Below, in pieces: positions 30,993 through 45,998 of a stretch of 64,000 nucleotides of DNA. This stretch comes from an uncultured Dehalococcoidia bacterium (GTDB lineage: Bacteria > Chloroflexota > Dehalococcoidia > Lucifugimonadales > UBA1127), in contig OX638292.1 in the NCBI GenBank assembly GCA_951812285.1, positions 230,774 to 294,773 on the forward strand, read 5' to 3'. The stretch's first letter is position 1, and every line of letters begins with the position of its first letter. The notes under the pieces are model-generated. The model worked only from the letters and a program-made list of their open reading frames with translations. It did not search any database and had not been told where the DNA came from. Made by a program: the position numbers and the translations under genes.

Positions 30993-32183
30993 CTACTCGG
31001 AAGCGAGGCTCTGGCTCGCGGCGGCAACGCCCGCTCCGGATGCCACTTCGTACCCGAACTGCGGCAGCAGCGCTTCCAGCGATGAAAGAAGGATGAGCAC
31101 GTTGCTGGACGTTGAAGACTCGCCCATGAGCCCAATGCGCCACATCTTGCTCGCGAACTGTCCCAACCCGCCACCGATCTCGATGTTGTACTCGGTGAGT
31201 AGGCGTCGGCGCAGGCCCGCGTCATCGACGCCCTCAGGCACGTGGACGCTGGTGAGTTGGTATGTGCAGAATTCTTCGGGCACCAACAGCTCGAGGCCGA
31301 GGGCCGAAAGCCCGGCTCGCAGGGCACGGCCGTTGCGTCGGTGTCGAGCAATTCGGTTGTCTAGCCCCTCCTGAAGCACGAGCCGCAGAGCCTCGCGTAG
31401 GGCGTAGATCATGCTCATTGGCGCTGTATGGTGGTACACGCGGGTTCCCCCCGCCCAGTACTGAAGCAGCAAGCCCAAGTCCAGATACCAACTACGGGCC
31501 TTTTCCGTCCGGTTGCGGATGGCGTCGAGACCCCTGGGGCTGACGGCTACGGGTGACATTCCGGGAGGTGCGCCCAGGCACTTCTGCGTCGCGCTGTAAG
31601 CAAAGTCGATGTCAATCTCGTCAAAGTCCACGCGGGCGCCGCCAAGAGAGGTCACGGCGTCCACAAGGAAGAGGGCATCATATTCATGGGCCAGCTGGGC
31701 AAGCTTGTCGAGGGGCTGAAGGACGCCTGTCGACGTCTCGGCGTGTACTGCCCCAAGCAGCTTCACCTTCGGCTGTTGCTTGAGTACCGCTTCGACCGCG
31801 TCCGGATCGGCAGTCTTGCCCCACTCGACGGGAACTGGGACAACCGTTGCGCCCTGCCGCGAGGCGATCTCTTCCAGGCGCAGACCAAAGAAGCCATTCT
31901 CAACGACGACTGCTACGTCTCCGGGCTCGAGCAAGTTGGCGAGAGCTGCCTCCATGCCGGCTGAGCCAGTACCGGAGACAGGCAAGGTGAATGCCTCTTC
32001 GGTGCCAAAGACTTCGCGCAGCATCTGCGAGACGCCGTCCATAATCTTGATGAACTCCGGGTCCAAGTAACCCAAGATGGGAGCAGACATGGCACGGAGC
32101 ACGCGCGGGTCCACATCGCTGGGGCCTGGACCCAGGAGGGTACGTCGCGGCGGATTGAGCTCCTCAACGGGGCCGGAGGGCAT
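30993..32183 (-). CDS. Class-V aminotransferase (serine-pyruvate / alanine-glyoxylate aminotransferase-like)
   Basis: GPGPS N-terminal motif, SGTGSAGMEAA, and PLP-lysine motif SATQKCLGAPPG. ATG at 32183 follows GAGGTG. An alternative ATG lies at 32195. Confidence 0.85.
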   Translation of the reverse strand: MPSGPVEELNPPRRTLLGPGPSDVDPRVLRAMSAPILGYLDPEFIKIMDGVSQMLREVFGTEEAFTLPVSGTGSAGMEAALANLLEPGDVAVVVENGFFGLRLEEIASRQGATVVPVPVEWGKTADPDAVEAVLKQQPKVKLLGAVHAETSTGVLQPLDKLAQLAHEYDALFLVDAVTSLGGARVDFDEIDIDFAYSATQKCLGAPPGMSPVAVSPRGLDAIRNRTEKARSWYLDLGLLLQYWAGGTRVYHHTAPMSMIYALREALRLVLQEGLDNRIARHRRNGRALRAGLSALGLELLVPEEFCTYQLTSVHVPEGVDDAGLRRRLLTEYNIEIGGGLGQFASKMWRIGLMGESSTSSNVLILLSSLEALLPQFGYEVASGAGVAAASQSLASE

Positions 32184-32391
32184 GGCACACCTCATTGCGG
32201 GTAAGTCTTGGGAAATGCATCACAAGTGAACAAAGGGTAGCAACCGCACCCACGGCCGTCAATGCAATTCATCTTTGGCAGCACAAACTAGGAAACAACA
32301 TAACGCATTTCAGTGGATTCTGCCGGTACATGGATTGGGAATGGATTCGTTGGAAAGGTGGTTCGAAGCAGGCAGTGCCGAATAATCACGC

Positions 32392-34830
32392 CTATGGTTT
32401 CGGAACGCAGTAGCCAACGCCATGCTCCGTGAAAATGTACTTTGGGTTGCGAGCATCGTCGCCCAGTTTCTGCCTAAGGGATTTGACGTAGGCGCGGAGC
32501 AGTTGGGACTCTCCGGAGTACTCGGGTCCCCAAACGCGCTGGAGCAGTTCGTTTTGAGTTAATACTCGCCCGGCGCTAGTACTGAGTTCGCTCAACAGTT
32601 TGAATTCCGTGGGGGTCAGCTTGACAGGGTTCCCTTGAACAATTACCGAACGCGCGGCGAAGTCAACGTTGAGGCCGTCAACTTGATAGGACTCTAGGTA
32701 TTCAGCTCTGTGCGGGTTGCCTCGCTTTCGAAGCGAGGCCTTGATTCTTGCTACTAGCTCAGATGGAGAGAACGGCTTCACGATGTAGTCGGCGGCTCCC
32801 ATCTCAAAGGCGCGAACTATGTGGTCGTCGGAGTCCTGGCGCGAAAGCACAACAACAGGGATGCCGTATTCTGTCGAGACTCGTCTCATCAGATCGTAGC
32901 CCCGAACACCCGCCGTCGATAGGTCCAAGAGAAGGACATCCGGTCGGTCAACGTTCAAGAGTCGTTCTACGTCGTCCAAATCAAATGTAGAGATCGGAGT
33001 GTAGCCGGCCCCGAATAGTGAGTTGCGAACTGACCTCAGGGCGGCAGCATCGTCGACTGCTACAAGTACGCGGATTCGCTCTTTCGACGGAGATGAAAAA
33101 GGGGCACCGGACAGAAACGAGTCGTTTGAAGTGAGGGTGGCGGGTTCATCTGCAACTGGGATGGTGAAGGTGAAGGACATCCCGCGTCCGCCCGCGCCAA
33201 ACCCTGCCCAGATGCGGCCACCGTGGGCCTCCACTATGCCCTTGCAAATGGCCAGATCCAGTCCGTCGCCGTTGAAGGCCTGCCGAGTGAAGTCCGGTCC
33301 TGAAGGGGACAGTCTCCTGAAGAGATAGGAGAGGCCGGTCCCAGGAACGCCAAAGCCATTGGTTGAAATGCTAATTGCGACGAAGATGTCATCCCTCGAT
33401 GCAGATATCCGGATGGCTGTTGTGTCCGTGCAATATCGGTGAGCGTGGTTGAGCAAGTTCTGAACGACCTGATTCAGGCGTTCTTTGTCCGCCATGATCT
33501 GCGGCAACGCTGCGGGGATGGCCCGCTCGATGGCGAACCTGCCCTTTAAGCCTTGATGCTGGTCTATTGCCTCATCTACCAGTGCAGCGACGTTCACACT
33601 CTTCGTTTGCACGGCAAGTAACCCGGCTTCGATTTGGGTGAGTTCGATCAAGCCGTTCAATTGGGAGCGCATGAGGTCTGCTTGGTCGTCAATGATGTGC
33701 AGGAGGTAGCTCGACTCTGTTGGATTGAGTGGGGCTATCGGATCCAAGAGCGACGCAACGGAACCCTTGATCGCGCTTAGGGGAGTGCGGAGTTCATTGC
33801 CGATGGTTACGAGGAATTGGGCGCGCAATCGATCCAGATCCTCTAGTGGGGCCATGTCCTGCAGAGTCACCACAACAGAGGTGACTTCGCCGCCATCCGA
33901 GCGAATGGGAACGGCGTTAACGAGCGCGGACACTGTGGAGCCATCCGGCAGAGTCAAAGTCATCTCCTCCGCGCGGACCGTTTCGCCACTCTTCAATTGC
34001 TCTAATAGACTTGGGAGGTCTAAGGAAAACTCCTGACCACTTGCTCGTCGAATTGTAAATCTGCCAATTATCTGCCGAAGATCCCGATCCTGCGGGCTGA
34101 AATCACCAACCAACTTCTTGGCTTCCTGGTTGAGGGATACAAGTTCCGCGTTGAGGGCGTCGAAGACTAGCACCCCTACTGGGGAAATGTTGATGAGCGC
34201 TTCTAGGTCGGCCTTAGCACGCTGTTCCTCCTCGTATCGCCTGGCATTGGCGATTGCGGCTGCGGCCTGCGACGCGAAGGTAACCAGAGTCTCTTCGTCC
34301 GAAGGGGTAAATTTCCGCTCGCCTTCCTTATCGGCCAGATAGATGCTTCCCACACGTGAGCCGCGAAACTCTACGGGCATTCCCAGAAAGGTGCATACTG
34401 ACAAGTGTTCCCCGGGAAATCCCAGTGAGGATGCGTAACCTGGAAAGTCAGCTAGTCTAAGGGGAGCAGTTAGGCCGTTTAGGTGAGAGTAAAACTCGCG
34501 CATCTTGGGAAGCGACTTCCACGAGTCCTTTAAGTCCAGTGAAATGCCTACCGTTACGGCATGTTCCGTTACTCCTGCGTCATTGACCGAAACGATGGCT
34601 CCGTGCTGAGCGCCAGTGAGCGTGCAGGCCGCCTGAAGGCAATTCTCCAGAACGGTCGTCAGATCTAGACTTTGCGTAGCGTAGAGACTCGCCTCGGTGA
34701 ACTTTGAAAGTCGTTCCCGGAGTTCAGCGTTCTCCTGTGCAAGATCCAGTTCAGCGCTACCCCCGCGAGAGGAGGACTCGGGCGACTCAATGTGAGTTCG
34801 TTCCATGCGGCCACTGTACCAGCTAGGCAC
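32392..34830 (-). CDS. Fused GAF-PAS-histidine-kinase-like (degenerate H/N/G1/G2 boxes)-REC-OmpR-type wHTH regulator
   Basis: 812 aa. The GAF C-terminus (..QAAAAIANARRYEE), PAS, DHp/CA-like region, REC (VAVDD, LLLDL, VVVLS, KPF) and Trans_reg_C (..LTPTEFKLLSEL...YIFTEHGVGY) are all readable. The H-box reads GNELRTPL. Start is GTG 34830 or ATG 34806. Confidence 0.85.
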   Translation of the reverse strand: MPSWYSGRMERTHIESPESSSRGGSAELDLAQENAELRERLSKFTEASLYATQSLDLTTVLENCLQAACTLTGAQHGAIVSVNDAGVTEHAVTVGISLDLKDSWKSLPKMREFYSHLNGLTAPLRLADFPGYASSLGFPGEHLSVCTFLGMPVEFRGSRVGSIYLADKEGERKFTPSDEETLVTFASQAAAAIANARRYEEEQRAKADLEALINISPVGVLVFDALNAELVSLNQEAKKLVGDFSPQDRDLRQIIGRFTIRRASGQEFSLDLPSLLEQLKSGETVRAEEMTLTLPDGSTVSALVNAVPIRSDGGEVTSVVVTLQDMAPLEDLDRLRAQFLVTIGNELRTPLSAIKGSVASLLDPIAPLNPTESSYLLHIIDDQADLMRSQLNGLIELTQIEAGLLAVQTKSVNVAALVDEAIDQHQGLKGRFAIERAIPAALPQIMADKERLNQVVQNLLNHAHRYCTDTTAIRISASRDDIFVAISISTNGFGVPGTGLSYLFRRLSPSGPDFTRQAFNGDGLDLAICKGIVEAHGGRIWAGFGAGGRGMSFTFTIPVADEPATLTSNDSFLSGAPFSSPSKERIRVLVAVDDAAALRSVRNSLFGAGYTPISTFDLDDVERLLNVDRPDVLLLDLSTAGVRGYDLMRRVSTEYGIPVVVLSRQDSDDHIVRAFEMGAADYIVKPFSPSELVARIKASLRKRGNPHRAEYLESYQVDGLNVDFAARSVIVQGNPVKLTPTEFKLLSELSTSAGRVLTQNELLQRVWGPEYSGESQLLRAYVKSLRQKLGDDARNPKYIFTEHGVGYCVPKP

Positions 34831-35093
34831 GTTTCTTCACAATATGCACATACTCTGCATCATTTCCTATCCAGAGCAACCGAACTAACAACAAGGATTC
34901 TTTAGTCTTGCAGGTACAAGATGAGGGCGCACGGATTTGAGTCAATTCCTAGGTCAAATGAGACATAAGAAGATGTCGGGGTGGAGTTCTTCACAATATT
35001 TTCATAGAATCGCGCCATTATTCATGCACATCTCATATTCTCAGTGTACATTGTTACCCGATATGGCCAACTAGGTGGGGAAGAGGTGGTTGA

Positions 35094-35573
35094 GTGGTGG
35101 CAAGAACGGAGAGGATCGGCAAGGAACTCGAGGACAGCTATACCGACTTGGGGATGTCGGTTGTAAGTCTTGTAAATGTTGTATCGAAGGGCACGGCCGA
35201 GCTAGTTGCATCACAGAACCTGGCTCCGTTGGAATTCGCGATACTACGCGGCTTTCTGGGTAACGAAGAATGGACTATCTCCGAAATGGCGCTGGCCCTT
35301 GGAGTGAGCCCTTCTCGTGTCAGCAGAGTCGTGTCGCGGCTGGTTGGGCTAGGAATGTTGCGCCGCCGAAGGCTTCGGAGCGACCGGCGAGTAGTTCGGT
35401 TGACTTTGACTGCACAGGGCCGTGAACTAGCTAACGACATTCAGCAGCGCGCACAGGTATATGACGCTCAACTGTATCAGGGCATTAGCGACACGGAGCG
35501 CGCTTGCTTCGTGTCGACAGCGGCTAAGATCTTGTCCAATTTCGCCGCCTTGGAGGGTCCAAGGGGTAGCTAA
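35094..35573 (+). CDS. MarR-family transcriptional regulator
   Basis: 159 aa with a winged-helix core (ISEMALALGVSPSRVSRVVSRLVGLGMLRRRRLRSDRRVVRLTLT.QG). GTG start follows GAAGAGGTGG. Confidence 0.85.
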   Translation: MVARTERIGKELEDSYTDLGMSVVSLVNVVSKGTAELVASQNLAPLEFAILRGFLGNEEWTISEMALALGVSPSRVSRVVSRLVGLGMLRRRRLRSDRRVVRLTLTAQGRELANDIQQRAQVYDAQLYQGISDTERACFVSTAAKILSNFAALEGPRGS

Positions 35574-35975: not shown

Positions 35976-36004
35976 CGGAGCCATCGTTCACATATGTTCA
36001 CAGC

Positions 36005-36270
36005 CCGTTCAGGTGCCCACTCGGGAGAATAGGGAAGGCGGTGTAAGTCCGCCGCGGTAGCGCCACTGTAAGCGGGAACGGGGCCGGTGCCCACTGTCGC
36101 AGTCGCGATGGGAAGGGCCCCGGCAGCCAAATAGTCTGCCCGCGAGCCAGGAGACCTGCCTGATCGGGAGGTGACCACTCTCCGCACCAGAGAGGGTCCC
36201 TGGCACGCCGCGCGCTTGGACACATTGAGCGCGACGAACCGACCTCCAGCGGAGAGTTGCTGGAGGTCTT
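36005..36270 (+). promoter_or_regulatory. Cobalamin (B12) riboswitch with an SD-sequestering expression platform
   Basis: Conserved core AATAGGGAAGGCGGTGTAAGTCCGCC, GCCACTG (36062-36068) and B12-box AGCCAGGAGACCTGCC (36145-36160). Downstream is a perfect 10-bp helix GACCTCCAGC / GCTGGAGGTC (36241-36268) that buries GGAGG (36262-36266) and the start region of the permease gene. Confidence 0.85.
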
Positions 36271-37351
36271 CTTGTTGCGTGTCGCGGCCTTGTCAAGGAT
36301 CGAGGTTTATCGTCGGGCCGGAGTGAGTGTTCGGCTCGTGCTCGGGGGCGGCGTACTCTCCTTGCTGATTCTCGCCTGTGCGCTGGTTTCACTCAGTCTC
36401 GGCCCCGTTGGCATTCCCGTCAGCCATGTTGCGTCCGTCATTCTGGCGCTCTTGGGCATTGACGGCGGTGAGTTTTCTCGCACTGAGCAGCTTGTTATCG
36501 AGCAGATCCGTTTGCCCCGAATCGTCGTAGGCGCGGCGGTCGGCATGGCGCTTGGGGTTTCTGGGGCCACGATGCAAGGGTTATTCCGCAACCCCATGGC
36601 GGACCCGGGCATCATTGGCGTTTCCGCAGGTGGCGCCGTTGGCGCGGTAGCCGCAATCGCGTTGGGCGCGACAGGGCTCTTCTTCCTTGCGCTGCCCACC
36701 TTTGCGTTTGTGGGCGCCATTTCGGCGACCTTCCTCGTGTATGGTATTGCAGCAGTAGGCGGACACTTCTCGATGGCCACGCTGTTGCTGGCGGGCGTTG
36801 CTGTAAACGCGTTCCTCGGAGCCATCGTCTCCGCCATTATCATCCTGCTGCCCGACAACGAGGCCCTTAGGGAGATTCTATTCTGGCTTGCCGGTGGCCT
36901 CGATTCCCGTTCGTGGGAACATGTACGAATCTCGGTGCCGCTTATCTTCGGAGGCGCCGCTGTGATTACCCTCATGGCGCGCGACCTTAACCTGCTGACG
37001 TTAGGCGACGACGAGGCGCGTTCGATGGGCGTGCGTGTGGGATACATGCGAACCGTCCTGATGACGGCGGCAGCGTTGGCGACGGGCGCTGCAGTTGCGG
37101 TCAGCGGGACCATTGCATTCGTGGGGTTGGTGACTCCGCACATCTTGCGGCTCGTGCTTGGTCCGGACCACCGTGTACTCATTCCCATGAGTGCCATCGG
37201 TGGCGCCATCTTCGTCGTTGTCGCCGACACCTTCGCCCGCACAGTCATTCAACCTGCCGAGTTTCGCGTCGGCGTGCTGACTGCCTTTGTCGGCGCACCC
37301 TTCTTTATCCTGCTGCTCATAAAGAACAAGCGGCAGGCGTATTCGCTTTAG
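36257..37351 (+). CDS. btuC: FecCD/BtuC-family ABC permease (cobalamin/siderophore type)
   Basis: About 9-10 TM helices with typical FecCD blocks (QGLFRNPMADPGIIGVS, TGAAVAVSGTIAFVGLVTPH). First gene after the B12 riboswitch. TTG 36272 (5 nt after GGAGG) is a better-spaced start than TTG 36257. Confidence 0.85.
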   Translation: MLEVFLLRVAALSRIEVYRRAGVSVRLVLGGGVLSLLILACALVSLSLGPVGIPVSHVASVILALLGIDGGEFSRTEQLVIEQIRLPRIVVGAAVGMALGVSGATMQGLFRNPMADPGIIGVSAGGAVGAVAAIALGATGLFFLALPTFAFVGAISATFLVYGIAAVGGHFSMATLLLAGVAVNAFLGAIVSAIIILLPDNEALREILFWLAGGLDSRSWEHVRISVPLIFGGAAVITLMARDLNLLTLGDDEARSMGVRVGYMRTVLMTAAALATGAAVAVSGTIAFVGLVTPHILRLVLGPDHRVLIPMSAIGGAIFVVVADTFARTVIQPAEFRVGVLTAFVGAPFFILLLIKNKRQAYSL

Positions 37352-37373: not shown

Positions 37374-38540
37374 ATGATGATCAAACGTGGGTTTTGCTGC
37401 CTGTTCCTACCCATAATCTTGCTGCTTGCGATTCCTATCGCGGCATGCTCGACAGGCGAACCTGCGGCTGTCCCCGTACCCGACCCGACACCGGTTGTCG
37501 TTACACCTGAACCCGCTAAAGTCCCAGACTTGACCGCCGAACCACCGGTACATGCGCCAACCCAATTACCGTCTGCCACGCCGACGCCAATGCCGGCACC
37601 GACGCCAACGCCCATGTCGTCGTTGATGGGTGTGCGCGGGATCGTGGACCCGACCAACTTTAGCTGGCCCCGAGAGGTAGAAGGACTCAATGGTTTCGTG
37701 ACTATCCCGGCAAAGCCGGAGCGCATCATCACGGCCTCCGTTGGCCACGACGAATCCGTACTAGCCCTGGTCCCGGCGGAACGTCTGGTAGCCGTTGGGG
37801 CTTTCACGAAGGATGAGACATTCTCAAACATTGCCGAGTTTGTGAAGGACAGGCCAGAGATTACCCGGGATCCTGAAACAATCATTGCGCAATCTCCTGA
37901 CGTTGTGGTAACCAGCCCGTTCTTCACAGCGGATGGCATCGACGCGCTGACGAGGGTCGGCATCCCCGTCGTGCAGACGGAGTTGAAGCACGATCCGGAG
38001 GCGCGAATCAACAACATCCTCTTCATCGGCTATATCCTCGGCGAGGAGGAGAGGGCTCTTCAGTTTGCCATGGAAGTGCGTGAACGGTATGAGTCCCTGG
38101 TAGGGGTGACCAGCAAAGCCGCGCCACAGCCGCGGGTGCTTGCCGTTACGCAGTACTCCGATAAGCTTTGGGTCGCGGGCAGTAACTCGACTGAAGGTGG
38201 GGTAATCGTCGCTGCAGGCGGCGTCAACGCCGCCGATGAGGCCGGGATTGAGGGCAACCAGACAACGAGCCTCGAGGGAGTCATCGCGATGGCGCCCGAG
38301 GTGATCATTATCCCTCAGCCTGTAGCTTTTGGAGCAAATGAGTTCCGTGAGAGCCTCTTGAACAACGAGACCTTGGCAGAAGTTCCAGCCATCAAGAGCG
38401 GCAGGGTCTTTGTGGTGGAGAGCAAACACTTTACTACGCTGTCTTACTGGAACATTCGCGGTGCGGAAGACCTTGCTAGGATGCTGTGGCCGGATGACTT
38501 TTCGGCTAATCCATCGCCTGCATTCAGCCTTGCGGAGTAG
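37374..38540 (+). CDS. btuF: Periplasmic-binding-protein type-8 lipoprotein (cobalamin/siderophore SBP)
   Basis: Lipobox IAACSTG and a Pro/Thr linker. PBP core (PERIITASVGHDESVLALVP..RLVAV...PDVVV). Lies between the FecCD permease and the ATPase. Confidence 0.8.
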   Translation: MMIKRGFCCLFLPIILLLAIPIAACSTGEPAAVPVPDPTPVVVTPEPAKVPDLTAEPPVHAPTQLPSATPTPMPAPTPTPMSSLMGVRGIVDPTNFSWPREVEGLNGFVTIPAKPERIITASVGHDESVLALVPAERLVAVGAFTKDETFSNIAEFVKDRPEITRDPETIIAQSPDVVVTSPFFTADGIDALTRVGIPVVQTELKHDPEARINNILFIGYILGEEERALQFAMEVRERYESLVGVTSKAAPQPRVLAVTQYSDKLWVAGSNSTEGGVIVAAGGVNAADEAGIEGNQTTSLEGVIAMAPEVIIIPQPVAFGANEFRESLLNNETLAEVPAIKSGRVFVVESKHFTTLSYWNIRGAEDLARMLWPDDFSANPSPAFSLAE

Positions 38541-38546
38541 CAGTTT

Positions 38547-39383
38547 ATGCAAAACCGACGGCCACCAGCGATAGATGCACAGGAACTCTTCTTCAAGGTG
38601 GAAGCCAAGACACTGTTGGATGGCGTTGACCTGCACGCGGACCATGGGCGGATGGTGGGCCTCATTGGACCTAACGGTGCTGGCAAGTCCACGTTCCTGC
38701 GGGCAATTTCAGGCGTGCTTCGATTGCAGGGTGGGAGCATCCACCTTGACGGCAGAGACATGCAGTCCTTGACGTCTAGGGAAGTGGCCGCGGACATGGC
38801 AATTGTGCCGCAGATACTGCCGTACACGCACGGATTCACGGTGATGGAGTTGGTGCTCATGGGGCGGTACCCCCATTTAGGCCGCTTCCAGATCGAGGGT
38901 AAGGAGGACGCTCGCATTGCCTGGGACGCAATGCGGTTGACTGAGACTGAGCAGTTTTCGGATCGGAGACTCGACACGCTGTCCGGAGGCGAACGGCAGC
39001 GCGTGATTGTTTCGCGTGCCTTGGCGCAGCTACCCCGAATCCTATTGCTCGACGAACCTACGGCCAACTTGGACGTGTTGCAACAGCTGAAGGTTCTGGG
39101 CCTTGTTCGAGAGCTGGTGGATGAAGGGCTCACAGCCATCGCGGCCATTCACGATTTGACCTTGGCGGCGCGCTTCTGCGATCGCCTTGTGCTGCTGAGC
39201 GAGGGCCGGGTGCTGGCAGCGGGGCAGCCGAATGAGATCCTGACGACCGATAGGATTGCCGCTGCATTCGGCGTCGAAGCTGCCGTCTATCGCGACCCCA
39301 ATACAGGATCGTTGGCAATCAGCCTCATTGGCCCCGCGGAAGCGCACAAACCCAAGGCAAACGGGCGCAGCGCTTGCGTCTAG
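38547..39383 (+). CDS. btuD: ABC transporter ATP-binding protein (BtuD/FecE type)
   Basis: Walker A GPNGAGKST, signature LSGGERQR, Walker B LLLDEPT. Confidence 0.9.
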   Translation: MQNRRPPAIDAQELFFKVEAKTLLDGVDLHADHGRMVGLIGPNGAGKSTFLRAISGVLRLQGGSIHLDGRDMQSLTSREVAADMAIVPQILPYTHGFTVMELVLMGRYPHLGRFQIEGKEDARIAWDAMRLTETEQFSDRRLDTLSGGERQRVIVSRALAQLPRILLLDEPTANLDVLQQLKVLGLVRELVDEGLTAIAAIHDLTLAARFCDRLVLLSEGRVLAAGQPNEILTTDRIAAAFGVEAAVYRDPNTGSLAISLIGPAEAHKPKANGRSACV

Positions 39384-39464: not shown

Positions 39465-40997
39465 CTATTTGCCCCATAGCCCCGCCGAGCGGTAAACAAG
39501 GTCCATGTCTACATGCTCGCAAACGAAGGCGGCCAACTTGTCGAATTCCTCGTCTTGGTCCGCATCCGTTGATTGCTGCGTAAGCGTGATGCCCTTTCGA
39601 TTCGCCACACACGCCAAAATGGACTGGCGCGCGGCTCGATTGTGGAACAGACCGTGCATGTACGTCCCGAGCGTCAGCCCTTCGGCATCCAAGGCACCGT
39701 CTGGCTGGTTGACGCGCTCACCTGAGCGTGTTTCCAGTACAAGAGGATGAGTTAGACCCGCGCCAGAGGTCACACCCAAGTGGATTTCGTAGCCGGTGAG
39801 CTCTGCGCCAGAGCAGCCGCTGAGCAGTCCGCGTTCCTCAGTAACTCTGGCCCGAACCTGATGCGTGACCTTTGCGGTCAGAAACGTAGTGGAACAGGGC
39901 AACAATCCTAACCCGGGCGTCCGCAGCCGTGGCGATTCCACACTGTCGGGGTCTAGGAGTTCCATTCCTAGCATCTGGTAACCTGCACAAATGCCTACGA
40001 TTGGTGTGCCCCTGGCGCGGGCATCAAGAAGGAGGCCGGCCAATCCACGCCCTCGCAACCAGTCAAGGTCCGCTGCAGTGGTCTTGCTGCCCGGAATGAC
40101 AACTAAGTCCGGCTCACCAAATTCTTCCGCCCGGGTGACGTAGTGTACCCGCACGCCGGGTTCGCGGTGCAATGGATCAAAATCGTCGAAGTTGGCGATG
40201 TGAGGGAGGCGCAAGACGGCGACGTCGATATCAGGGCCGTCTTCTCGTGCTGCGCCCTCTGGCAGGCCCAGCACATCCTCTTCCGGGATGTGGATGTCGA
40301 AGTAATACGGCAGCACACCCGCGACCGAAACGCCAGTGCGCTCTCGCAGCACGTCGATGCCGGGCGCGAGCAGCGTGGAGTCCCCGCGGAACTTGTTGAT
40401 GACAAAACCCTTGACCAACTCCCGCTCCTCGGGCTCTAACAAGGCCATAGTGCCGACAAGCTGCGCGAAGACGCCCCCACGCTCAATGTCCCCAACAAGG
40501 AGCACCGGGGAGTTGGCGTAGCGGGCCACAGCCATGTTGACGATATCGACGTGCCTTAGGTTTATCTCCGCTGGACTGCCTGCCCCCTCGATGACAACGA
40601 CGTCAAATTCCCGGCGCAAGGCATCCAGCGAGGCCGTTACGGTACGCCAGAGTTCCTCCTTTCGGTCGTAGTAGTCGCGAGCGGCAAGTGCCCTCTGCGG
40701 ACGGCCAAGCACCACCACCTGGGATAGGTTGTCGGACTCGGGCTTGAGGAGCACTGGGTTCATTTCGACGCGCGGCGTCGTCATGGCTGCAGCCGCCTGC
40801 ACAGCCTGTGAGCGGCCGATCTCTCCACCGTCGGGGGTGGCGAAGGAGTTGAGCGACATGTTCTGTGCCTTGAACGGGGCGACTGAGTAACCGGCTCGCG
40901 CGAAAATGCGGCAAAGTGCGGCGGCGAACACTGACTTGCCCGCGTGGGACGACGTTCCCTGCACCATAATTACTCTTGAGAGTTTACCGTTTGACAT
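39465..40997 (-). CDS. cobQ: Cobyric acid synthase
   Basis: N-terminal CobQ/CobB/MinD-type ATPase (MVQGTSSHAGKS) plus a C-terminal GATase domain (GICAGYQMLG). ATG at 40997 follows AAGGAGG. Confidence 0.9.
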   Translation of the reverse strand: MSNGKLSRVIMVQGTSSHAGKSVFAAALCRIFARAGYSVAPFKAQNMSLNSFATPDGGEIGRSQAVQAAAAMTTPRVEMNPVLLKPESDNLSQVVVLGRPQRALAARDYYDRKEELWRTVTASLDALRREFDVVVIEGAGSPAEINLRHVDIVNMAVARYANSPVLLVGDIERGGVFAQLVGTMALLEPEERELVKGFVINKFRGDSTLLAPGIDVLRERTGVSVAGVLPYYFDIHIPEEDVLGLPEGAAREDGPDIDVAVLRLPHIANFDDFDPLHREPGVRVHYVTRAEEFGEPDLVVIPGSKTTAADLDWLRGRGLAGLLLDARARGTPIVGICAGYQMLGMELLDPDSVESPRLRTPGLGLLPCSTTFLTAKVTHQVRARVTEERGLLSGCSGAELTGYEIHLGVTSGAGLTHPLVLETRSGERVNQPDGALDAEGLTLGTYMHGLFHNRAARQSILACVANRKGITLTQQSTDADQDEEFDKLAAFVCEHVDMDLVYRSAGLWGK

Positions 40998-41141
40998 CCG
41001 TGGTCGCCTCCTTGCAGTCAACTATTCCGGAACCATCGCGGGAGATGGCGCGGATGCGAATGAAAAGTGAACGTTCCTGGGAAATAGCGATTGTAGGTTG
41101 CAGGCGGGGGAAATGTGACGTCACTTCACTAGAGGCAATAG

Positions 41142-41215
41142 TGGCTGCCGAGCCTGGATTCGAACCAGGGTTACGTGGTCCAGAGCCACGCGTGCTACCG
41201 CTGCACCACTCGGCA
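41142..41215 (-). tRNA. tRNA-Gln (anticodon CUG), CCA encoded
   Basis: Hand-folded cloverleaf. Acceptor TGCCGAG/CTCGGCA (U1-A72, G73, typical of bacterial tRNA-Gln). D stem GTGC/GCAC. Anticodon stem CGTGG/CCACG with loop CTCTGGA. T arm CCTGG-TTCGAAT-CCAGG. Confidence 0.9.
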
Positions 41216-45921: not shown

Positions 45922-45998
45922 CGGGGCGTGGCGCAGACCGGTAGCGCACCTGCATGGGGTGCAGGGGGTCGTTGGTTCAAATCCAATCGCCCCGACCA
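45922..45998 (+). tRNA. tRNA-Pro (anticodon GGG), CCA encoded
   Basis: Acceptor CGGGGCG/CGCCCCG. D stem GCGC/GCGC. Anticodon stem CCTGC/GCAGG with loop ATGGGGT. T arm GTTGG-TTCAAAT-CCAAT. A73, CCA. Confidence 0.9.

Follow-up and report, generated by a model that had tools for sequence, protein, structure and literature searches.

A single-chain GAF-PAS-kinase-receiver-winged-helix protein with a degenerate kinase core from an uncultured Dehalococcoidia bacterium

To our knowledge, pseudo-histidine kinases have been studied in few cases only (DivL, PsmA and RetS-like proteins), and single-chain proteins that join a kinase, a regulator and a DNA-binding domain have been studied almost solely in Bacteroides. 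In DivL of Caulobacter, dimerisation and regulator docking are kept without kinase activity (PMC4211667). In the Bacteroides hybrid two-component systems (HTCS), a constitutive kinase dimer joins the fused DNA-binding domains (PMC11253607). Here we describe a gene on the minus strand of a 64,000-nucleotide stretch of DNA (hereafter the window) from an uncultured Dehalococcoidia bacterium (contig OX638292.1, positions 230,774 to 294,773). It encodes, in one chain, a GAF and a PAS domain, a dimerisation and histidine phosphotransfer (DHp) domain, a catalytic and ATP-binding (CA) domain, a receiver (REC) and an OmpR/PhoB-type winged helix-turn-helix (wHTH). Judged by the residues at its catalytic sites, the kinase is very probably dead.

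The open frame (32392-34830) comprises 812 codons and reaches a GTG at 34830. Because an ATGG is invariant in an alignment of six orthologous upstream regions and the homologues measure 804-805 residues, the ATG at 34804-34806 is probably the true start, giving a product of 804 residues; residue numbers refer throughout to the 812-residue frame. The original prediction had placed GAF, PAS, DHp/CA, receiver and OmpR-type wHTH domains in this one open reading frame (ORF), and a Pfam scan agreed, with all six domains exceeding the gathering score (Table 1). An NCBIfam scan of the protein gave sub-threshold matches only, to named kinases and OmpR-family regulators, and the protein is therefore not an equivalog of any named system. 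Since it has no hydrophobic segment (highest 19-residue Kyte-Doolittle mean 1.52), the protein is predicted to be soluble. For annotation, the label "histidine kinase" is unfit, and "response regulator with a degenerate kinase-like domain" suits the evidence.

Degenerate catalytic sites in a maintained kinase core

The catalytic sites were located by aligning the protein with HK853 of Thermotoga at the level of residues (3dge; residue number = chain index + 231). The phospho-acceptor H260 of HK853 aligns with N345, within an H-box that reads GNELRTPL, and codon 345 is the AAT at 33796-33798, exactly where it had been predicted. N376 of HK853 corresponds to N458, so this Asn is kept. The N-box Mg-ATP ligand N380 corresponds to H462 (codon 33445-33447). 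In the G1 box, the adenine contact D411 is replaced by T490 (codon 33361-33363) and both glycines (G413 and G415 of HK853) are kept. In the G2 box, G441-T-G-L-G445-L aligns with G521-D-G-L-D525-L, and the second glycine of this box, which lies at the hinge of the ATP lid, is replaced by D525 (codon 33256-33258). The alignment thus bears out the claim that all four catalytic boxes (H, N, G1 and G2) are degenerate. The DHp domain and the Bergerat-fold CA domain are recognisable by their Pfam matches, by the secondary structure of an AlphaFold2 model and by Foldseek matches to HK853, WalK and ZraS.

A homologue search covering 5.8 billion proteins returned eight close relatives (P0001-P0008) from independent assemblies, 57-99% identical to the window protein and with the same kinase-site losses. 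Together with the window protein they form a nine-member clade, throughout which the same four losses are found. The acceptor position is Asn in 9/9 members. At the other three positions the residues drift: the N-box Mg ligand is replaced by H H H H L L H H Y, the G1 Asp by T T T T T A S S S and the second G2 Gly by D D E D D D N D E in the nine sequences. Of the two substitutions singled out in the original prediction, the Asn is therefore conserved in all homologues of the clade, and the Thr alternates with Ala and Ser. A search of the clade alignment for an alternative acceptor found no other His conserved in the DHp domain.

These data also bear on the reading that the protein is still an active kinase, which would use unconventional residues, another His or another nucleotide-binding mode. 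The DHp and CA folds and the glycines of G1 and G2 are largely kept, as would suit such an enzyme. However, four independent essential sites are replaced, the replacements vary between orthologues (H/L/Y, T/A/S and D/E/N), unlike what is expected of a new catalytic solution, and the DHp domain offers no second conserved His. We regard an active kinase as very improbable.

An artefact or a decaying gene would be a simpler explanation, with AAT as an error for CAT or with a pseudogene on newly acquired AT-rich DNA. AAT is indeed one base away from CAT, and the GC content of the segment is below that of its surroundings. A sequencing error was rejected, however, as AAT or AAC codons for Asn stand at this position in seven loci from independent assemblies, the window included. 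Moreover, the reading frames of the orthologues are intact with a ratio of nonsynonymous to synonymous substitution rates (dN/dS) of about 0.07-0.15, and synteny and the same dip in GC are conserved in all orthologous loci. The probability of this explanation is negligible.

How selection acts on the individual domains was estimated by the Nei-Gojobori method for the window protein against P0002. The dN/dS was 0.047 for DHp (range 0.047-0.09), 0.056 for CA (0.056-0.09), 0.026 for REC (0.026-0.06), 0.097 for GAF, 0.067 for PAS and 0.52 for the linker between CA and REC, with the lowest value in the protein, 0.019, for the wHTH; dS is saturated (1.0-2.5), so that these ratios are approximate, and the ranking of the domains by dN is still clear. 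The values for DHp and CA are comparable to that of REC and below those of GAF or PAS. Identities were also compared with those of canonical relatives at matched overall divergence. The CA domain is slightly less conserved in the pseudokinase clade (0.54-0.63 versus 0.60-0.67), and REC is more conserved (0.67-0.70 versus 0.59-0.64). Given the low dN/dS and the conservation at matched divergence, the DHp-CA core is maintained by purifying selection, which acts on every domain, while its catalytic positions drift. It is quite likely that the kinase-like core is functional as a non-enzyme.

The retained receiver and the single-chain family

The receiver pocket, consisting of D593, D594, D636 (codon 32923-32925), S663, Y682 and K685, is complete and aligns with the active sites of MtrA and KdpE, D636 falling on their phospho-acceptor Asp. 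The last 225 residues of the protein could be aligned over their full length with MtrA (E 4.5e-38) and with KdpE (E 2.1e-36). All six pocket residues are invariant in the nine clade sequences, in which the dead kinase sites drift. An intact receiver and wHTH had been predicted, and the Pfam matches, these alignments and the invariance within the clade concur. In an AlphaFold2 monomer model (predicted local distance difference test, pLDDT, 70.9; predicted template modelling score, pTM, 0.39) all six domains are predicted to fold. In it the DHp domain forms a pair of long helices, and the CA domain has an alpha/beta fold whose lid is modelled with low confidence; the receiver takes a (beta-alpha)5 fold and is followed by a wHTH, and the poorly conserved linker of ~27 residues between CA and REC is disordered. 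Foldseek matches further included VicK, YF1, bacteriophytochromes, KdpE and MtrA, besides those to kinases named above.

Because the receiver pocket is complete, it could be a working acceptor that is fed from outside. We consider an external phosphodonor for the receiver plausible, with confidence evenly balanced. A different use of the receiver would be made if the dead core docked its own phosphorylated REC at the DHp domain and either reset it as a dedicated phosphatase or sensed its state in the manner of DivL. Several observations fit this proposal. The Glu one position after the acceptor site (H+1) is invariant in the clade and the Thr at H+4 is present in 7/9 members, whereas PsmA of Streptomyces is without this phosphatase motif (PMC12963549). 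Within the core, conservation is highest in DHp helix 1, on which regulators dock, and N345 is invariant though the other dead sites drift. DivL binds phosphorylated DivK via the surface of DHp helix 1 (PMC4211667), and the bacteriophytochrome DrBphP is a kinase-inactive, signal-gated phosphatase (PMC8292422). On the other hand, H+4 is not strictly selected, since two members of the clade have Ala there and A, V, I or S often occupies it in canonical members of the family; the phosphatase of DrBphP needed ATP (PMC8292422), and the nucleotide pocket is broken here; and DivL is without phosphatase activity (PMC4211667). A phosphatase or sensor of this kind is improbable in our estimate. In a comparison of specificity residues, which bears on possible cross-phosphorylation by paralogues, DHp helix 1 and REC helix 1 were similar between the pseudokinase and canonical groups. 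DHp helix 2 differs from the canonical group at several core positions, which group the clade with a second degenerate lineage.

The fusion of a kinase to a DNA-binding regulator had been taken as uncommon, and this did not hold. The best 120 homologues all have the same six-domain architecture and measure ~800 residues (a few 980-1180), and about 100 of them carry the canonical motifs MVSHELRTPL, NLxSNAxKY, DxGxG and GxGLGLAI. The architecture is shared by 115/148 further cluster representatives at 50% identity (P0122-P0269). A scan of one genome per GTDB species gave at least 80 loci (L003-L082) with 28-48% identity, the orthologue-bearing genomes not being among the matches listed; ~60 of the matches listed are full-length fusions, nearly all of them catalytically canonical. 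The matches listed come from metagenome-assembled genomes that bear the labels Dehalococcoidia (the majority), Caldilineaceae, Acidimicrobiia, Latescibacterota, Gemmatimonadota, Acidobacteriota and Spongiisociaceae. By their isolate names, many of these look like bins from marine sponges, and the identity of 40-48% across phyla suggests horizontal spread of the family within the marine-sponge habitat. A literature search for the GAF-PAS-kinase-REC-wHTH family found no description of it. The fusion family is thus large, uncharacterised and made up mostly of canonical, self-contained two-component regulators.

An exhaustive profile search covered 1.84 billion representatives clustered at 50% identity. 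The nine-member clade collapses into one cluster (P0005, 1497 bits) and the next match lies far lower (957 bits), which makes the clade small and tight. The search yielded 117 representatives of full architecture: kinase and receiver are both intact in 61 and both degenerate in 41, a degenerate kinase stands beside an intact receiver in 11, and the converse is found in 4. The kinase is thus degenerate in about 45% of the full-length representatives, a fraction that is inflated by a profile built from the dead clade and by clustering at 50%, which over-represents fast-evolving lineages. The receiver has decayed as well in 41/52 of them, and loss of the kinase and loss of the receiver remain strongly correlated despite these caveats of sampling. 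A dead kinase is therefore not unique, and mostly it occurs with a degenerate receiver. Retention of the receiver beside a dead kinase is the minority outcome and suggests that the receiver may still be in use.

A crude neighbour-joining tree with parsimony suggested ~18 changes of kinase state and placed the clade of the window protein inside a larger one of 14 tips, in which every kinase is dead. In a tree of the best 120 homologues it joins a second degenerate group (P0010, P0014, P0016, P0022, P0075, P0096, P0104 and P0109) at the same deep node. Both groups are without the G1 Asp and the second G2 Gly, and derived DHp helix-2 residues are common to them (L377, L386, Q390, I395 and E396). 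Since the acceptor His or the N-box Asn survives in part of the second group, the distribution suggests that ATP binding was lost first.

Other combinations of lost sites were seen elsewhere in the family. In long forms of ~1000 residues (P0009, P0012, P0028, P0081 and P0102) the N-box Asn is Tyr or His, and the receiver Asp is Asn in four of the five (all but P0102). In the lineage of P0022, P0104 and P0109 the His is still present, and the N-box Asn and the G1 Asp are gone, as are the acidic pair (K-E) and the Lys of the receiver. At loci L010 and L028 a canonical kinase is joined to a receiver whose acceptor position is Asn. Several genomes carry two copies of the family, among them L021 and L028 (CBDBDT010000002.1, ~2 kb apart) and L010 and L035 (CBDCOH010000002.1). 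In the near-tandem pair L021/L028 one copy has the normal receiver Asp and the other has Asn.

The distribution of losses bears on a further alternative, namely that the window protein is a phosphorylation-independent regulator that resembles a one-component system. Any signal would then pass as a conformational change from GAF/PAS through DHp to REC-wHTH, and the receiver pocket would serve folding or the binding of a metal or ligand. In support, the 41 representatives degenerate in both kinase and receiver evidently work without phosphotransfer, the kinase state has changed repeatedly on the tree, no kinase gene lies nearby in the 64-kb window, and fused dimers must use interdomain contacts anyway (PMC11253607). 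However, receiver residues drift in lineages without phosphorylation, and here six are invariant while the kinase sites and the heme ligand vary. We consider a regulator independent of phosphorylation possible and, on these grounds, unlikely.

Sensor domain, marR spacer and surrounding locus

The GAF domain is homologous to the heme-binding GAF-A domains of DevS/DosS (PDB 2y79/2w3d, E 2e-16) and DosT (E 1.9e-14) of M. tuberculosis; a canonical family member, P0013, matches a DosS-type GAF-A at E 2.4e-34. In DosS, His149 is the proximal iron ligand, the H149A variant lost the spectrum of His-ligated heme, and Tyr171 is the distal residue (PMC4082495). H142 of the window protein (codon 34405-34407) aligns with His149, and Y164 with Tyr171. 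An HPPM motif round the proximal His is kept in 93/98 canonical near relatives. In place of it the nine-member clade has HLSV (the version of the window protein), KLPV, QLPV, ILQT, VLQI and similar motifs. At the position of the distal Tyr, the nine sequences have Y Y Y Y Y Y H H F. The window protein may still bind heme; among the orthologues, heme ligation does not appear to be a conserved function. As the heme His varies among orthologues, gating of the protein by a signal is plausible and the input uncertain. The original prediction of a kinase module repurposed for signal-dependent dimerisation or as a scaffold thus stands as far as the module is concerned, which is retained with a dN/dS of ~0.05-0.09 for DHp and CA, and is in doubt as to the gating.

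P0013 and other canonical members have both the HPPM His and the distal Tyr, and may sense oxygen, nitric oxide (NO), carbon monoxide or redox state with an OmpR-type output. Experimental work on canonical members was not found in the literature search.

A gene for a MarR-family regulator lies divergent from the pseudokinase gene, and the spacer between them is the candidate target of the wHTH. The 64 kb contain exactly two copies of the 11-mer ATTGTGAAGAA, one at 34833-34843 and one at 34987-34997; this spacer holds both, and they are oriented like the gene. When up to one mismatch was allowed, five matches were found against 0.27 expected, and 0/100 shuffled sequences reached five. The pair is also present at two orthologous loci, L001 and L002, 152-160 bp apart. 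The core of the repeat is conserved in six aligned orthologous spacers, in which the rest of the spacer is poorly conserved, and in the repeat cluster near marR the cores CATGA and ATGA are invariant in all six. Exact TTGTGAAGAA is found in the spacer only for the window, L001 and L002; in P0002 there are variants that differ from it by one base, and the few exact matches at other loci fall outside the corresponding upstream region. The gene-proximal copy ends ~30 nt before the ATG, which would be a -35 position if the leader were very short, a speculation that is below the scan threshold. Near marR, three same-strand repeats form a cluster with start-to-start spacings of 11 and 20 bp. Such a three-repeat layout is typical of operators of the OmpR/PhoB family (pho boxes). 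We infer from this arrangement that the repeats may be binding sites of the wHTH. The coordinates of the gene, its domains, the candidate sites and the adjoining genes are collected in Table 1.

Table 1. Features of the regulator gene and its immediate neighbourhood (positions in the window)
Feature	Position	Strand	Basis or remark
Class-V aminotransferase	30993..32195	-	Pfam Aminotran_5; ~196 bp downstream of the gene; neighbour in every orthologous locus
Coding sequence of the GAF-PAS-DHp-CA-REC-wHTH protein, predicted kinase-dead	32392..34806	-	ORF and aligned start
Trans_reg_C (OmpR/PhoB-type winged helix), residues 733-808	32407..32634	-	Pfam 80.9 bits, model positions 1-76 of 77
Response_reg, residues 588-697	32740..33069	-	Pfam 65 bits
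HATPase_c (CA), residues 448-560	33151..33489	-	Pfam 62.8 bits, model positions 2-110 of 111
HisKA (DHp), residues 336-403	33622..33825	-	Pfam 39.7 bits
PAS, residues 208-326	33853..34209	-	Pfam PAS 41.4 bits, PAS_9 37.8 bits; PAS-like beta-sheet in AlphaFold2 model
GAF_2, residues 55-194	34249..34668	-	Pfam 43.5 bits; homologue of DosS/DevS and DosT GAF-A
Divergent promoter/operator region, 287 bp, ~42% GC	34807..35093	.	Footprint in six orthologous spacers
Gene-proximal ATTGTGAAGAA copy, candidate site	34833..34843	-	TGTGCA half-site 9 bp upstream
marR-proximal cluster of three same-strand repeats	34987..35026	-	TGTGAA 34990-34995, TATGAA 35001-35006, CATGAA 35021-35026
MarR-family regulator, divergent	35094..35573	+	Pfam MarR_2 and MarR

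By tblastn, marR adjoins all six orthologues with 55-88% identity, also at places that lacked a called gene. Synteny was compared over five orthologue loci, and all five show the divergent marR, the gene and, ~200 bp downstream on the same strand, the class-V aminotransferase. Beyond the latter follow a HemN-like radical-SAM gene, ychF, holA and genes for an aldo-keto reductase, an esterase and a transporter of the major facilitator superfamily. MarR homologues with 42-46% identity also stand beside other members of the family (L053 5330-5737, L025 9510-9977, L047 3461-3871 and L041 2527-2934), L053 being a canonical member with the same divergent layout. As canonical L053 and the others also adjoin marR, the pairing may predate the death of the kinase.

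The GC content is 0.56 in the gene, 0.51 in marR and the spacer and 0.62 elsewhere in the window. In all five orthologous loci (L001, L002, L083, L084 and L086) the marR-regulator pair lies 6-10 GC points below its flanks. The AT-richer segment and the divergent MarR gene that had been noted are thus real. Recent horizontal acquisition as the cause of the low GC was rejected, since the same dip and the same synteny are found in all orthologous loci. Across the same genome pairs, the amino acid identity of the regulator is 53-84% with a proportion of synonymous differences (pS) of 0.61-0.78, and that of marR is 55-88%; for the aminotransferase, the HemN-like protein and YchF the identity is 77-95% with a pS of 0.33-0.65, the aminotransferase being 90-94% identical across these genomes. 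The dip is a stable property of the fast-evolving marR-regulator pair and could stem from weaker codon constraint or from allelic replacement by recombination.

On the far side of marR, a cobalamin riboswitch (RF00174, 105.7 bits, 35994-36177, plus strand) precedes a FecCD / Peripla_BP_2 / ABC_tran transporter (ORFs 36257-37351, 37374-38540 and 38547-39383, plus strand), probably for the uptake of B12. In its binding protein a lipobox-like Cys is followed by a long linker rich in Pro, Thr and Ala, as is seen in lipoproteins of bacteria with a single membrane, and a CobQ/CobB-like amidotransferase (39465-41021, minus strand) is convergent with the transporter. The B12 block stands beside marR in three loci. 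It lies outside the conserved unit, as its place is taken in two others by a giant polyketide synthase (PKS). At these two loci (L083 1-6787 and L084 1-3082) a single-module PKS of ~3400 residues (KS-AT-DH-MT and further domains), an acyl carrier protein and a phosphopantetheinyl transferase are found beside marR; the PKS presumably resembles a type from sponge symbionts. An Rfam scan of the window also detected two tRNA genes, at 41145-41215 (minus strand) and 45922-45995 (plus strand).

Proposed mechanism and comparison with known systems

In the model that we propose, the protein would descend from a single-chain two-component system with a DosS-type GAF, a PAS, a HisKA kinase, a receiver and an OmpR-type wHTH. 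It would be a soluble, constitutively dimeric transcription regulator incapable of autophosphorylation, with the acceptor His, the Mg-binding Asn and the adenine-binding Asp lost and the lid hinge at G2 broken. We infer a scaffold role for the DHp-CA core, which would act as a dimerisation helix bundle that links GAF/PAS to REC-wHTH and holds the two wHTH together. The receiver would obtain its phosphate from an external source, either another kinase or a small molecule such as acetyl phosphate, and the dead kinase module would set conformation, not phosphate flux. Because a constitutive dimer already joins the DNA-binding domains in the Bacteroides systems (PMC11253607), control would be exerted by interdomain conformation. 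The wHTH would most likely bind TGTGAA-type direct repeats in the promoter region shared with marR.

Several points weigh against this model of a dead-kinase dimeric scaffold, an external phosphodonor and a wHTH acting on the marR spacer. The loss of ATP binding and autophosphorylation is read from residue identities only, and the saturation of dS limits the estimates of selection. The invariant six-residue pocket among nine related sequences could mirror structural constraint and not phosphorylation. No partner kinase or other two-component gene was found when a family hidden Markov model was run on all six-frame ORFs of the window; it matched this gene only. The structural model is a monomer of moderate confidence and is silent on the docking of REC and on the dimer. 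The proximal heme His is lost in 5/9 clade sequences (H H K Q I V H H Q). A scan of the spacer region for sigma-70 promoters and terminators gave hits no better than in shuffled sequence, and MarR itself could equally bind the spacer repeats. With these points set against the evidence above, we regard the model as a whole as evenly poised.

A broader and more tentative proposal, which we think somewhat unlikely to hold in full, is that the clade is a snapshot of a repeated route from single-chain two-component to one-component regulation. Along this route the ATP pocket, the His, the heme ligand and the receiver pocket would be lost stepwise and in this order, and the clade would be an intermediate whose receiver has been rewired to an external donor (acetyl phosphate or a paralogous oxygen- or NO-sensing kinase) and coupled to marR-linked transcription in sponge-associated bacteria. 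If this were true, tethering in a constitutive dimer would make phosphotransfer dispensable.

The most interesting result is found at the level of the family, which is large and unstudied and whose GAF is of the DosS type; its phosphorylation chemistry has been lost repeatedly and in coordination, and the clade of the window protein may be an intermediate that keeps the receiver. Kinase loss can be studied here in dozens of natural replicates, some with and others without loss of the receiver. The family makes a testable question of the role of a two-component core after phosphotransfer has been lost and of the order in which the parts are lost. The DosS-type heme GAF, together with the abundance of the family in uncultured marine and sponge-associated Chloroflexota and in other phyla, points to an uncharacterised system of gas or redox sensing in these communities.

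Among described proteins, MtrA, KdpE and PhoB share with the window protein a complete REC-wHTH with all active-site residues. Unlike these free-standing OmpR/PhoB regulators, its REC-wHTH is tethered by the poorly conserved linker of ~27 residues to a presumed dimer of a dead kinase. The mycobacterial sensors DosS/DevS and DosT have a HisKA_3-type kinase and act on a separate regulator of the NarL type, DosR. They resemble the window protein in their GAF-A domain, in which the positions of the proximal His and the distal Tyr are likewise occupied, and differ from it in having two GAF domains (PMC4082495; PDB 2w3d, 2vzw). PsmA of Streptomyces is also a hybrid pseudokinase without the H-box His, with degenerate ATP motifs, and is conserved in stable synteny; the residue at its His position varies between species (PMC12963549). 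Unlike PsmA, the window protein keeps the E-x-x-T motif and ends in a wHTH.

DivL of Caulobacter has, like the window protein, a HisKA-type core without the acceptor His (Tyr in DivL, Asn here) and PAS upstream of it (PMC4211667). Common to both are poor or no ATP binding, which is predicted for the window protein, and a core kept for dimerisation and receiver docking. DivL is, however, a separate, membrane-anchored protein that senses free phosphorylated DivK and controls CckA, and it keeps more of the ATP-binding motifs; in the window protein, receiver and DNA-binding output are fused to the pseudokinase. The Bacteroides HTCS combine a sensor, a HisKA/HATPase kinase, a receiver and a DNA-binding domain in one chain, as is the case here (PMC11253607). 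They sit in the membrane, sense glycans in the periplasm, bind DNA by an AraC-type domain and have an active kinase, whereas the window protein is predicted to be soluble, with GAF/PAS input, an OmpR/PhoB-type wHTH and a kinase that appears dead. The likeness in sequence consists in the shared two-component domains. The window protein thus combines two known kinds of protein, the histidine pseudokinase and the single-chain two-component system.

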